From an uncultured delta proteobacterium (GTDB lineage: Bacteria > Myxococcota_A > Polyangia > Polyangiales > JADJMO01): a stretch of 55,466 bases of DNA. Shown one piece after another: positions 49,645 to 54,595 of the stretch (within the stretch, counting starts at the first letter, position 1; every line of letters starts with the position of its first letter). The notes beneath the pieces were generated by a model that saw only the letters and a list, made by a program, of their open reading frames with translations, was not told the origin of the DNA and did no database searches. The position numbers were made by a program, and so were the translations under genes. The stretch spans positions 1 through 55,466 of the forward strand of contig CAIXWQ010001095.1 of NCBI GenBank assembly GCA_903923175.1, read 5' to 3'.

Positions 49645-49778
49645 CGCCACGCGCGTCGCGCGCCGCCTAGCTCGTCCACGCGGTCGAGTTGTGCCTGGCG
49701 TGGCGGATCCGGTAGCGTCGGAGCGAGTCGGCTCGAGCCCCGGTGCGCCGCGCCCAGGGCGGAGGGAGGCGCGCTGTC

Positions 49779-51596
49779 GTGACGCATGGGCCGACGACTT
49801 CGAAGGACGAGCGCGCGGCCGCCTCGTCGCAGGGCTCGACCGAGCCCGACGGGGCGTTCTCCGTGGGCGCGGTGCTCGCGGGCACCTACGAGCTGCGGGC
49901 GCTCCTCGGCACGGGCGGCATGGGGCAGGTCTTCGACGCGTGGGACCGCAGCCTCCAGCGCCGCGTCGCGATCAAGGCGCTCTGGCGCGACTTCGATCCG
50001 GCCGGGCTCGTGGCCGAGGCGCGCGCGCTCGCGGCGATCCGCCACCCGGGCGTGCCCGCGGTCTACGCCCTCTGGGAGCACGAGCGCGTGCCGTTCGTGG
50101 TCATGGAGCACCTGCACGGCACGAGCCTCTACGACCAGAGTCGCCGCCGTCAGGCGCAGCACCGCCCGTACTCGATCGCCGAGGCGACGCGGCTGCTCAT
50201 CGGCATCGCCGAGGGGCTCCACGCGGCCCACGTGGCGGGGGTCGCCCACCGCGACGTGAAGCCGGAGAACGTGCTGATCACGCCGAGCGGACGCGTCGTG
50301 CTGATCGACTTCGGGCTCATGGTGGCGCAGACCTTCATCGCGGGCGCGACCGGCTACGCGTGCGGCACGCCCGAGTACATGGCGCCCGAGTCGATCTCCG
50401 ACGAGATCGCGCGCGGCGCGGCGCACCTCGTCGACGTGTACGCGCTCGGCGTCGTCGCCTACGAGCTGCTGACCGGCGTCGTGCCGTACCAGGACGAGGT
50501 GGTGGCGCAGCTGCTCCGGGCGCACCTGCTCGCGCCCGTGCCGAGCCTGCTGGAGGCGCGGCGCGACGTGCCCGAGGGGCTCGCGGAGCTGGTGACGTCG
50601 ATGCTCGCCAAGCAGCCGCGCGATCGGCCCGCGGGCATGGAGGACGTGCTCGCGGAGCTGCGCGCGATCGAGGTCGCGGGGGCGCAGGCGGCCCGCGCTC
50701 GCGTCACGCCGAACGCGGCGAGCTCCGCGCTCGGCCTGCGCGAGCAGCTCGCGAAGGCGATCGAGGAGGCCGACAAGCAAGGGCGCACGGTGGCGCTGCT
50801 GATGATCGCGCTGCGCGAGATCGACGCGCGCGCCGACGCGGAGGACGACGCCCTCCTCGACGCGATCGGCCTGCGCATCGGCGGCTGCTCGCGTCAGCAC
50901 GACGTCGCGGTCCGGCTCTCCGTCGATCTGTTCGCGCTGATCCTGACGAAGGTGCGCCACCCCGAGGACGCCGGCATCGCCGCGGGGAGGGTCGTGCGCG
51001 CGCTGGAGAAGCCGATCGCGGCCACCGGCCAGGAGCGTCGCGTGGGCGCCTCGGTGGGGATCGCGCTCTATCCCGCCGACGCGACCGACCCCGAGGGGCT
51101 CTCGGCGAGCGCGGAGCGCGCGATGCGCGGGGCCAAGCAGGCCGGGCGCGGGCGCTATCAGTGGGCGGCGGCGAGCGACGCCTCGCCGGCGTCGGTGGCG
51201 CGCAACATCGTCTGGAGCGAGATGCACGTCGTGGGCATCGCGGCGATCGACGAGCAGCACCACGGGCTCGTCGAGCGGGTCAACCGCCTCGTCGAGGGGA
51301 TGCGCTCCGGCCTCCCGCTCGAGCGGCGGCTCGACGCGCTCGACGCGCTCGTGCTCGCGACGGCCGAGCACTTCGCCTACGAGGAGCGCCTGATGCACGA
51401 GCACGGCGTCGAGAGCGCCACCGGGCACGTCGCGCTCCACCGGCGCCTGCTCGACGACCTGCGCAGCCTCGCCACCGGCCTCGACGAGCGCAGCCTCCTG
51501 CTGACGATGCGCTACCTGCACGAGTGGCTCTTCGGCCACGTCGACAAGACCGATCTCGTGCTCGCGAAGGCGCTGCACGCGCTCGGCGTGTCGTGA
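49779..51596 (+). CDS. Ser/Thr kinase - degenerate GGDEF - bacteriohemerythrin fusion
   Basis: Kinase GTGGMGQV, VAIK, HRDVKPEN, DFG, GTPEYMAPE. GGDEF-like fold with RLSVDLF and GASVGIALYP. Hemerythrin IDEQH, HFAYEE, HVALH, WLFGHVDKTD. SD GGAGGGAGG before GTG 49779. Confidence 0.88.
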   Translation: MTHGPTTSKDERAAASSQGSTEPDGAFSVGAVLAGTYELRALLGTGGMGQVFDAWDRSLQRRVAIKALWRDFDPAGLVAEARALAAIRHPGVPAVYALWEHERVPFVVMEHLHGTSLYDQSRRRQAQHRPYSIAEATRLLIGIAEGLHAAHVAGVAHRDVKPENVLITPSGRVVLIDFGLMVAQTFIAGATGYACGTPEYMAPESISDEIARGAAHLVDVYALGVVAYELLTGVVPYQDEVVAQLLRAHLLAPVPSLLEARRDVPEGLAELVTSMLAKQPRDRPAGMEDVLAELRAIEVAGAQAARARVTPNAASSALGLREQLAKAIEEADKQGRTVALLMIALREIDARADAEDDALLDAIGLRIGGCSRQHDVAVRLSVDLFALILTKVRHPEDAGIAAGRVVRALEKPIAATGQERRVGASVGIALYPADATDPEGLSASAERAMRGAKQAGRGRYQWAAASDASPASVARNIVWSEMHVVGIAAIDEQHHGLVERVNRLVEGMRSGLPLERRLDALDALVLATAEHFAYEERLMHEHGVESATGHVALHRRLLDDLRSLATGLDERSLLLTMRYLHEWLFGHVDKTDLVLAKALHALGVS

Positions 51597-51619: not shown

Positions 51620-52894
51620 TCAGCGCAGCCCGAGCAGCTCTCGCGCGCGCGCCGGGTCGGCGAGCTTGCGATCGATCGACGCAGCGTACGCCGCGGCGCG
51701 CGCGACCAGCGGCGCGCTCCCCTCGGCGAGGACCCCCTTCTCGAGGTAGATGTTGTCCTCGAGCCCGACGCGCGCGTGGCCGCCGAGGCGCATGGCGAGC
51801 TCGGTCATCGGCCGCTGGTGGCGCCCGGTCGCCGCGACGGCCCACGAGTGCGGCACGCCGGAGGCGGCGAGCTCGCCGACGAGGAAGCGCAGCAGCGACT
51901 CGCGCGGCGCCATCGCGCCCGGCACGCCCATCACGAACTGCACGTGGAGCGTCCCCGAGATCCTGTTCTCCTTCACGAGCGAGAGCGCCTCGTCGAGGTG
52001 CCCGACCTCGTAGCACTCGCACTCGGCGATCGAGCCCGTCTCCTGGATGCGCGCCGCGACCTCGCGGATCTCCTTGCGGGTGTTGACGAAGATGTCGTCG
52101 CCGAAGTTGATGGTGCCGCAGTTGAGCGTCGCCATCTCGGGGATCGGGCGGAGCAGCAGCGGCTGGCAGCGCTCCTCGATCGGCATGCCGACGGCGCCGC
52201 CGGTGGTGACCTGGATGACGACGTCCGACTTGCGACGGATCGCCTCGATCGTGGCGGCGAAGCGATCTCGCGACTGCGTGGGCTTGCCGTCGTCGGTGCG
52301 CACGTGGAGGTGCACGACCGACGCGCCGGCCTCGCGGCATCGCGCGGCCTCGTCGGCGATCTCCTCGGGCGTGAACGGGACGTGCGGGTTCTGCGCGCGG
52401 GTGACCTCGGCGCCCACGAGCGCCGCCGTGAGGATCAGCTCGGGGAGCGGATGCGAGGCCGGGAGCGCGTGCAGCTCGGGGGCGGCGAGCCGAGCGGGCG
52501 GCCGCTTCTGCAGCTCGGCGGGGACGACGCAGGTGCCGACGGCGCGGGTGACCACGATCGGCGGGTCGTAGTGCTCGGCGGCGCTCGCGGGGATGCCCGG
52601 CTTGCGCACGTTGCCGGCGACCTTGCGCGCCTCGAAGACCATCTTGCGCGAGGTGCGCCCGACGTGGACGAGCTCGGCCACCGCCTCGATGTAGTCGCCC
52701 GCGAACACCGGCGCGAGGAACTCGATCGACTCGTAGGCGCGGAAGAGCCCCTCGTCGCCGTCGTGCCGGATGAGCAGCTCGGTCGCGAGATCGCCGAACA
52801 GCGCGAGCATCCGCGCGCCGTCGACCAGCTCGCCCGCGTAGTGGGCGTCGTGGCTCGACATGCGCAGGCGGACGGAGGTGCGAAGGACGGTCAT
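51620..52894 (-). CDS. kal-kce: Fusion of 3-aminobutyryl-CoA ammonia-lyase (Kal, hotdog fold) and 3-keto-5-aminohexanoate cleavage enzyme (Kce/BKACE)
   Basis: N-terminal [55 protein letters not shown] (Kal). C-terminal [13 protein letters not shown]...[43 protein letters not shown] (Kce). Confidence 0.9.
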
Positions 52895-53065: not shown

Positions 53066-54595
53066 ATGGACCCGACCTCGCGCCGCTCGAACCCGCCGCC
53101 GCACCCGGCCGGCTACCCGGCGATCGAGGACGCCCCGGTGCACCTGGCGCCGGCGGTCGACGTGCGCGAGAGCGTCCGCCGCGCGCGCGAGGAGCTGCTC
53201 GCCGGGGGAGGCGTCGGCGAAGGGGGCTCGCGCTCGTGGCCTTCGCTGCCGATCGCGGCCGGGGCCGCGCCGATCGACGCTCCCACGGTGGGCACCACCG
53301 CGCCCATGGGGCTCCCCGCGGCGCAGGCTCCGGAGGCGATGCCCCCCTCGTCCTCGGGCGGGGCGCTCTACACGCTCGCGTTCCCGGTCGAGGAGCGTCA
53401 GTCGCGCCCGCCGCGCGCGCCTCTGCCCGACACGCGCAGCGCGCCCGGCGCCTCGGACGCGTTCGACGAACCCTTCGAGCCGAGCCCGCAGACCGTCGCG
53501 TTCGAGCCCAAGCCCTGGCTCGCGCCGCGCGTCGCGCCGCCGCAACCGCACGCGCCGCACGAGGGCTGCGAGCCCATCGAGCCGGGCCCGCAGACCGTCG
53601 CCTTCGAACCCACGCCGTGGCCCGGGCTGCGCGTCGAGCCCGCCGAGCGGAGCGAAGCCAGTCGCCGGCCCGAGTCGCCCGAGTCGAGCCTGTCGGGCCC
53701 GCGCACCGTCGCGTTCGAGCCCGCCCACGCCATCGTGCCGCGCGCGTCGATCTCGATCGGCGCGCCGCCGATGCCCACCCAGCCGAGCCAGGAGCCGGAG
53801 CCGGAGCACTGGCCGGAGCCGCTGCCACCGCCGGTTCCCCCCGAGCCGCCGCCTGCCTCGGAGCCGGCTCCTCTGTCGGCGCTCCCGCCGTCGGTGGCGA
53901 TGCCGCTGCACTCGTTCGCCCCCGAGGCCGCGATGCCCCCGGCGCTGGCGCACCTGATCGACGCGCCCGATCCGAGCGGTGAGCGCGGGGCGATCGCCCG
54001 CGATCTCGCGTCGATCGGCGCGCTCGACGAGCGCCCCGATCGCGAGGTGCAGCGCGAGGTCGGCGCGAAGGCGACGCTCGCCCGCGCCCGCACGCTCCGC
54101 TTCCGCCTGACGCTCCTCGACGCGTTCGAGGCCCTCGATCAGGCGCCGCTGCGCCCGGGCTCGATCCCGCCGGGGGTCGTCCCCATCGACGTCGCCATCG
54201 ACGCCGCGCTGCTCGTGGGCTTCGCCGACGGCGCGCCGTTCGTGCGGCACGTGGGCGCGGGCGCCGAGCTGCCGTTCGTGCGCGCGCTCGCGACCTTCAT
54301 GCGCACCGCGCGCCCCGACGTCCCTCGCTCGGTGCTGCGCGAGCGAGGCGCCGCGTCGATCGCCCGGCTCACCGTCGCCGGCTACCCCGCGGCGCTCGAC
54401 GCGCTGATGCGCGCGGCGCTCGAGCTCACGCTCGACGCGCGCGTGGCCGCGCTCGACGCCGCGGCCTTCGTCGCGCTCGTGCCGGCGGCGAACGGCCACC
54501 GGCTCGGCGCGCTCGCCGACCTCGAACGGGCGCTCTCGCTACGGACGGGCTCGGTCGCCCAGGCCCTCGAGCTCGCGCACCGGCGGAGGCGCTGA
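53066..54595 (+). CDS. Hypothetical protein: Pro-rich repeat region plus unknown C-terminal helical domain
   Basis: G/C-ending codons; TATGCT 11 nt before ATG; three (P/G)xQ/RTVAFEP repeats. Confidence 0.7.
   Translation: MDPTSRRSNPPPHPAGYPAIEDAPVHLAPAVDVRESVRRAREELLAGGGVGEGGSRSWPSLPIAAGAAPIDAPTVGTTAPMGLPAAQAPEAMPPSSSGGALYTLAFPVEERQSRPPRAPLPDTRSAPGASDAFDEPFEPSPQTVAFEPKPWLAPRVAPPQPHAPHEGCEPIEPGPQTVAFEPTPWPGLRVEPAERSEASRRPESPESSLSGPRTVAFEPAHAIVPRASISIGAPPMPTQPSQEPEPEHWPEPLPPPVPPEPPPASEPAPLSALPPSVAMPLHSFAPEAAMPPALAHLIDAPDPSGERGAIARDLASIGALDERPDREVQREVGAKATLARARTLRFRLTLLDAFEALDQAPLRPGSIPPGVVPIDVAIDAALLVGFADGAPFVRHVGAGAELPFVRALATFMRTARPDVPRSVLRERGAASIARLTVAGYPAALDALMRAALELTLDARVAALDAAAFVALVPAANGHRLGALADLERALSLRTGSVAQALELAHRRRR

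Follow-up and report, generated by a model that had tools for sequence, protein, structure and literature searches.

The stretch of DNA that we analyzed (here called the window; 55,466 nt) carries, near one end, a single 424-aa open reading frame, kal-kce, in which the ORF list and the translation revealed no internal stop codons (Table 1). The GC content of kal-kce by codon position (GC1, 0.74; GC2, 0.48; GC3, 0.97) follows the pattern of real genes in the host genome, the overall GC content of which is 74%. The original prediction, made from the sequence alone, held that a Kal domain, a Pro-rich linker, and a complete Kce are joined in one polypeptide, and the domain calls of Pfam and NCBIfam agree with that anatomy. 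The motifs that it quoted are likewise all present in the translation: the Kal signature sequence lies at residues 11 to 40, HLH at residues 195 to 197, and RVGLED at residues 375 to 380.

Table 1. Position of kal-kce, its domains and motifs, and three neighboring genes in the window
Feature	Coordinates	Strand	Basis
kal-kce ORF, 424 aa plus stop codon (51620 to 51622)	51620..52894	-	ORF list, translation, NF052389 (E 1.5e-201, 669.9 bits)
Kal domain, residues 1 to 131, hot-dog fold 3-aminobutyryl-CoA ammonia-lyase	52502..52894	-	NF052388, Pfam 4HBT, PDB 4mtu, AlphaFold2
Interdomain linker, residues ~132 to 150, Pro-rich, disordered	52445..52501	-	AlphaFold2 pLDDT, alignment of 46 fused homologues
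Kce domain (BKACE barrel)	51623..52444	-	PF05853, PDB 2y7d, AlphaFold2
HLH motif, His195 and His197 (His46 and His48 of Kce)	52304..52312	-	2y7d alignment, 46 fused homologues
RVGLED motif, Arg375 to Asp380 (Arg226...Glu230-Asp231 of Kce)	51755..51772	-	2y7d alignment, 46 fused homologues
617-aa protein: Ser/Thr kinase (residues 42 to 330), GGDEF diguanylate cyclase (332 to 474), bacteriohemerythrin (489 to 611)	49743..51596	+	
Pro-rich protein, ~508 aa	~53069..54595	+	
Methylmalonyl-CoA-mutase-type B12-binding domain, 134 aa	54770..55174	+	TIGR00640 (177 bits)

Matches to curated models placed both halves of the protein. In Pfam, the hot-dog family 4HBT matched residues 26 to 91 and the BKACE family PF05853 matched residues 153 to 423 (E 8e-95; 317.7 bits against a cutoff of 24.8). 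Among the NCBIfam models, the Kal model NF052388 scored 174.1 bits over residues 6 to 125, above its cutoff of 160, so that this half qualifies as a Kal equivalog, and the Kce equivalog NF052387 (E 5e-107) scored 357.1 bits, narrowly under its cutoff of 382. Weaker matches to other BKACE models, those for the 3-oxoadipate and 3,5-dioxohexanoate transferases, were also obtained. The model for the bifunctional protein, NF052389, was covered end to end (profile positions 4 to 437 of 440), with the same Kal, linker, and Kce architecture, but the score of 669.9 bits missed the curated cutoff of 725 bits, which is an operational naming threshold.

The neighbors of kal-kce encode PriA, a GNAT acetyltransferase, the Ser/Thr-kinase-GGDEF-hemerythrin protein, a Pro-rich hypothetical protein, and a stand-alone B12-binding domain. 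The gene order B12-binding domain, Pro-rich protein, kal-kce, PriA is conserved only in the family to which the host belongs (f1), and we found no synteny shared with the Sorangium or Polyangium loci. Since no neighbors are common to those loci, no linked function is implied; a functional linkage of kal-kce to its neighbors was considered and set aside, the synteny being confined to f1. As the original prediction had noted, no other pathway gene is adjacent: none was found on the contig, which ends only 2.5 kb upstream of kal-kce. None was found within 10 kb of kal-kce at any of 50 fused Myxococcota loci either.

Several features of the neighborhood are recorded here in their own right. Relative to other f1 members, the kinase-GGDEF-hemerythrin gene and the GNAT gene are inserted between kal-kce and priA. 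The gene for the B12-binding domain, two genes from kal-kce and at the contig end, is conserved in f1 only, and no partner large subunit for it was visible on the contig. The Pro-rich protein is encoded divergently to kal-kce and has no NCBIfam match; its C-terminal ~200 aa are conserved (47 to 63%) at the same position across f1.

Genes of the lysine pathway in the host genome and its relatives

The kce and kal genes were reportedly identified in one earlier paper. In anaerobes they belong to the operon kal-kce-kdd-kamA-kamB-kamC-kamD-kamE; in contrast, kal-kce stands alone in the host, and kamB and kamC were not found in the host genome. The original prediction had proposed a lysine or beta-lysine route in a myxobacterial host, to be looked for through kamA, kamD/E, and kdd elsewhere in the genome. 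A search of the host genome recovered kdd on contig C725 (227.8 bits against a cutoff of 200) and both kamD (709.5 bits against 600) and kamE (351 bits against 280) on contig C999. These matches above the cutoffs, together with the co-occurrence described below, support the proposed route. The kamA part of the search gave an ambiguous answer. Two KamA-family radical SAM genes (on C812 and C878) scored 385 and 261 bits against the lysine 2,3-aminomutase cutoff of 525, and 59 of 61 relatives carry genes of this family, irrespective of whether they have the pathway. The co-occurrence profile is thus uninformative for KamA, and with genes that are both below the cutoff and nearly universal, the entry step of the pathway is ambiguous. 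When the host genome was searched by tblastn, a Fusobacterium KamB query found no KamB, and the search for KamC gave only weak MutS-like matches; because the assembly is ~96% complete, these results do not prove that KamB and KamC are absent.

True kal and kce orthologues are present in 21 of the 61 relatives of the same order, fused in 12 and separate in 9. The gene kamD is present in exactly the same 21 genomes, and kdd is present in those 21 and in 3 more. In the host, the pathway genes are unclustered and lie on four different contigs. They are also far apart on the closed chromosome of Sorangium So ce56, where kdd maps to 3.32 Mb, kamD to 3.94 Mb, and kal-kce to ~8.66 Mb; this megabase spacing indicates that the dispersal is real rather than an artifact of a fragmented MAG. 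The closest unfused orthologues belong to kamD-kamE-kal-kce operons in three sister families (f4, f7, and f14), which show the same co-occurrence with kdd. There, kal and kce occupy different reading frames and are still joined to kamDE, whereas in the host they are fused and lie apart from these genes.

We made three further observations on pathway genes and their paralogues. In the host, kamD and kamE (C999:16714-20748) are ~1.5 kb apart, and the gap holds a 202-aa ORF without an NCBIfam match as well as a stretch with no assignment; in the sister families, the two genes are contiguous. A stand-alone BKACE paralogue with no Kal domain (C1123:6577-7422, minus strand; E 4e-56 to the Kce half) is encoded elsewhere in the host genome, and paralogues of this kind are found in most relatives, including those without the lysine pathway. 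Finally, one genome of the survey (G347, the genome of locus L023) has a second kamD-like copy with in-frame stops (C21:756457-757923) beside an intact kamD.

Both halves retain the residues expected of active enzymes

The Kce half aligned with the Kce structure from "Candidatus Cloacimonas" (PDB 2y7d) over 274 residues (E 9e-77). In this alignment VIHLHIR lies opposite VVHLHVR, and His195 and His197 correspond to His46 and His48; RCGFED lies opposite RVGLED, and the pattern R-x-G-x-E-D is kept as Arg375...Glu379-Asp380, with Glu379 equivalent to Glu230. The general-base position of Kce is kept as Glu293. In the Kce structure, His46, His48, and Glu230 are reported to be the zinc ligands. The zinc and substrate-binding residues of the 2y7d enzyme are thus also found in Kal-Kce, and the two histidines of HLH and the RVGLED motif are invariant in all 46 fused homologues. 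The Kal half matched the beta-alanyl-CoA ammonia-lyase Acl2 (PDB 4mtu) over residues 9 to 133 (E 1e-21). Acl2 shares the hot-dog fold and the beta-aminoacyl-CoA ammonia-lyase chemistry with this half but is a stand-alone enzyme with a beta-alanyl-CoA substrate and is only a distant relative.

An AlphaFold2 model of the protein (mean pLDDT, 83.6) showed a hot-dog domain and a TIM barrel with a disordered stretch between them. The hot-dog strands and helix span residues 5 to 123, pLDDT in the Kce half is mostly >85, and residues 132 to 148 in the linker fall below 50. Across the 46 fused homologues, the segment from the last invariant Kal residue to the first invariant Kce residue is 15 to 51 aa long and 20% Pro. 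The native C terminus of Kal (...CVVP..QKR) is still discernible ahead of the linker.

Glu163 of Kal-Kce is the equivalent of Glu14 in the 2y7d alignment, and Glu14 of Kce is needed for binding the 5-amino group of 3-keto-5-aminohexanoate (PMC10470551). As far as sequence can indicate, its retention argues for true Kce specificity over another BKACE activity. A residue that did change is Ser82, which is Thr at position 230 of Kal-Kce. This replacement would fit a drift in substrate, by which Kal-Kce would act on some other pair of a beta-keto acid and a beta-aminoacyl-CoA, outside the lysine pathway; so would the scores just under the Kce equivalog and bifunctional cutoffs, the separation of kal-kce from the kam and kdd genes, and the functional diversity of the BKACE family, from which two other transferase models gave weaker matches. 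We consider such a drift improbable. The change to Thr230 is conservative and is found in only 6 of the 46 fused homologues, the Kce and Kal models are by far the best matches to the protein, the Kal half scored at equivalog level, the residue for 5-amino group recognition is in place, and kamD accompanies kal and kce without exception (21/21).

With 38 stand-alone Kal and Kce sequences as the reference set, Kal-Kce retains 53 of 57 near-invariant residues of Kal and 57 of 63 near-invariant residues of Kce; the changes at the remaining positions are conservative or recurrent among the fused homologues. Formally, the four Kal and six Kce positions that differ could mean that one domain is catalytically inactive and is retained as a scaffold or an oligomerization module. 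However, column identity among the 46 fused homologues is 0.86 in the Kal domain and 0.80 in the Kce domain compared to 0.52 in the linker, none of these homologues has a substitution at a catalytic or zinc position, and a tblastn search of the host genome found no second copy of kal that could substitute for an inactive Kal half. A dead half is, in our judgment, very unlikely.

The Kce reaction has been described as reversible, and myxobacterial hosts are prolific producers of natural products. Coupled with the location of kal-kce apart from the catabolic genes, these points could be taken to mean that the enzyme runs in the biosynthetic direction, through a reverse Claisen reaction and amination, and makes beta-amino units for secondary metabolism. 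The genomic context does not favor that reading, to which we give hardly any credence: there is no conserved adjacent PKS or NRPS gene, the synteny within f1 is with PriA and the gene for the methylmalonyl-CoA-mutase-type B12-binding domain, and kal-kce co-occurs tightly with the catabolic genes kamD and kdd.

The fusion is an inherited trait of a Polyangiales-type clade

To place the fusion phylogenetically, one genome per species was scanned, and the best 80 loci (50 from Myxococcota and 30 from anaerobes) were examined. All 50 Myxococcota loci, mostly labeled Polyangiales or Polyangiaceae in their record titles, from which our taxon names are taken, carry the fusion as a single ORF. They include a dozen closed Sorangium chromosomes (So ce56 among them), Polyangium isolates, Labilithrix-like genomes, and many Polyangiaceae or Polyangiales MAGs. 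The genes are separate at all 30 of the other loci, which come from Clostridia, Bacteroidales, Fusobacterium, and Halothermothrix; Clostridia, Bacteroidota, and Fusobacterium have the full operon, kal-kce-kdd-kamA-(kamBC)-kamDE, in line with the statement in the original prediction that these genes are normally separate and clustered in anaerobes. In the protein database, the best 120 of 6,124 relatives (E <= 1e-30) are all full-length fusions of 405 to 509 aa, among them proteins 93% and 88% identical to Kal-Kce; where these 120 proteins have been given names, they are named after one half only. The suspicion that misassembly or a frameshift error created the junction, which a MAG as fragmented as this one (1,422 contigs; N50, 11.9 kb) might invite, can be dismissed, since the same single ORF is present at 60 independent loci, including the closed Sorangium chromosomes and the Polyangium isolates, and since the database relatives just described, the 93% and 88% identical proteins included, are full-length fusions.

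Within the 61 relatives, the fused genomes are all 9 members of f1 and 3 members of a second family, f17, and the separate genes belong to the three sister families f4, f7, and f14. In a sample of 301 genomes from the phylum, Kce- or Kal-type genes were found in about a quarter, mostly as adjacent separate genes, and uninterrupted end-to-end fusions were found in f1 and f17 only. The sole other full-span match in this sample, from family f44 (G126), has two in-frame TAG stops.

When the domains were concatenated for a maximum-likelihood tree, all 32 fused sequences grouped in one clade (SH-aLRT, 82, a moderate level of support obtained from a quick search). This clade was sister to the unfused sequences of the order, with the anaerobes as the outgroup. 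The fused state required 1 change on the tree, compared to a mean of 15.5 with shuffled labels. These results are consistent with a single ancient origin of the fusion, as judged from sequence. Moreover, the combination of one fused clade and lineage-wide occurrence indicates that the fusion is old and inherited; it is a trait of a Polyangiales-type clade. Kal-Kce fell in the same fused clade as two proteins that score above the NF052389 cutoff (from G024 and G040), and f1 formed a sub-branch of its own. On the strength of this shared clade, Kal-Kce is orthologous to the NF052389 family despite its score below the cutoff.

Where the original prediction departed from our results was in treating the fusion as a novelty. 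It had allowed that the finding would fall if the fusion were already the documented norm in this lineage, and that is what we observed: the fusion occurs at all 50 Myxococcota loci, its sequences form one clade, and an NCBIfam model for it, NF052389, already exists. Kal-Kce is one more, unexceptional representative of a bifunctional family that has already been catalogued, and not a discovery.

In anaerobes, a stop codon and a spacer of 3 to 100 nt divide kal from kce, which are two genes, whereas Kal-Kce is one ORF. At 21 of the 30 anaerobe loci (L064 to L093), the two genes share a reading frame, and between them lie one stop codon and a stop-free spacer of 3 to 40 nt. Programmed read-through was considered as an explanation and rejected, since ranking by tblastn favors loci that align through a single stop; moreover, kal and kce are in different frames at 9 of 9 loci from the sister families. 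The excess of in-frame pairs is thus probably a bias of the tblastn ranking and not a sign of read-through. As a separate observation, a one-base change at the in-frame anaerobe loci would recreate a fusion.

Proposed function and history of Kal-Kce

We consider it very probable that Kal-Kce is a functional bifunctional enzyme of the lysine route, the product of a fusion that evolved once, in hosts whose pathway genes are dispersed. Each of the four other readings (a drift in substrate, an inactive half, biosynthetic use, and misassembly) is weakly supported. Our analysis shows what the two domains are, that their catalytic residues are intact, that the fusion extends across the lineage, and that it co-occurs with kamD and kdd; the enzymatic activity, the direction of flux, any benefit from channeling, and the choice of enzyme that supplies beta-lysine are inferred. 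Lysine or beta-lysine would be converted to 3,5-diaminohexanoate by KamDE and then to 3-keto-5-aminohexanoate by Kdd. [quoted passage not shown] In a myxobacterium with a large genome geared to respiration, the crotonyl-CoA formed would presumably enter beta-oxidation rather than butyrate fermentation.

The separate Kal and Kce proteins of Fusobacterium, Clostridia, and Bacteroidales are the same two enzymes encoded in the same order, kal followed by kce, and the Fusobacterium proteins are 66% identical to the Kal half and 48% identical to the Kce half. The domain order of Kal-Kce would mirror the ancestral gene order. We propose that the stop codon of kal was lost and that the short spacer came to be translated as a flexible Pro-rich linker, in an event that would have occurred once, in an ancestor of the Polyangiales-type Myxococcota clade that comprises the family of this MAG, Sorangium and Polyangium, and the Labilithrix-like group. 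Within this fused clade, kal-kce would then have left the kam operon to stand alone, with the genes of the pathway becoming scattered over the chromosome.

More tentatively, Polyangiales of soil and groundwater, aerobic cultured Sorangium and Polyangium included, could employ the "anaerobic" beta-lysine/3,5-diaminohexanoate route for respiratory lysine catabolism; the fusion might offset the lost operon coupling through 1:1 stoichiometry and direct transfer of 3-aminobutyryl-CoA, and the B12-dependent aminomutase might work without KamBC. We regard this combination as a possibility that is somewhat doubtful.

Genes of the lysine "fermentation" set occur widely in Myxococcota, and the open literature that we searched held no discussion of the pathway or the fusion in myxobacteria and no biochemical data on fused members. 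No fusion is mentioned in the Kat paper (PMC3149608). Given that we found no open-access account, we regard the presence of the route in aerobic Polyangiales as a matter of modest weight that has been little described, and not as a surprise. The fused and split clades offer a natural comparison for the question of whether fusion of consecutive enzymes gives channeling.

One feature of the linker deserves a separate record. In a Polyangiaceae-like subgroup (homologues P0040 to P0117), the linker is ~37 aa long and is not random, carrying the semi-conserved motif RRPKELYMPALPPGPAP...PIVTP, which could be a docking or oligomerization element.
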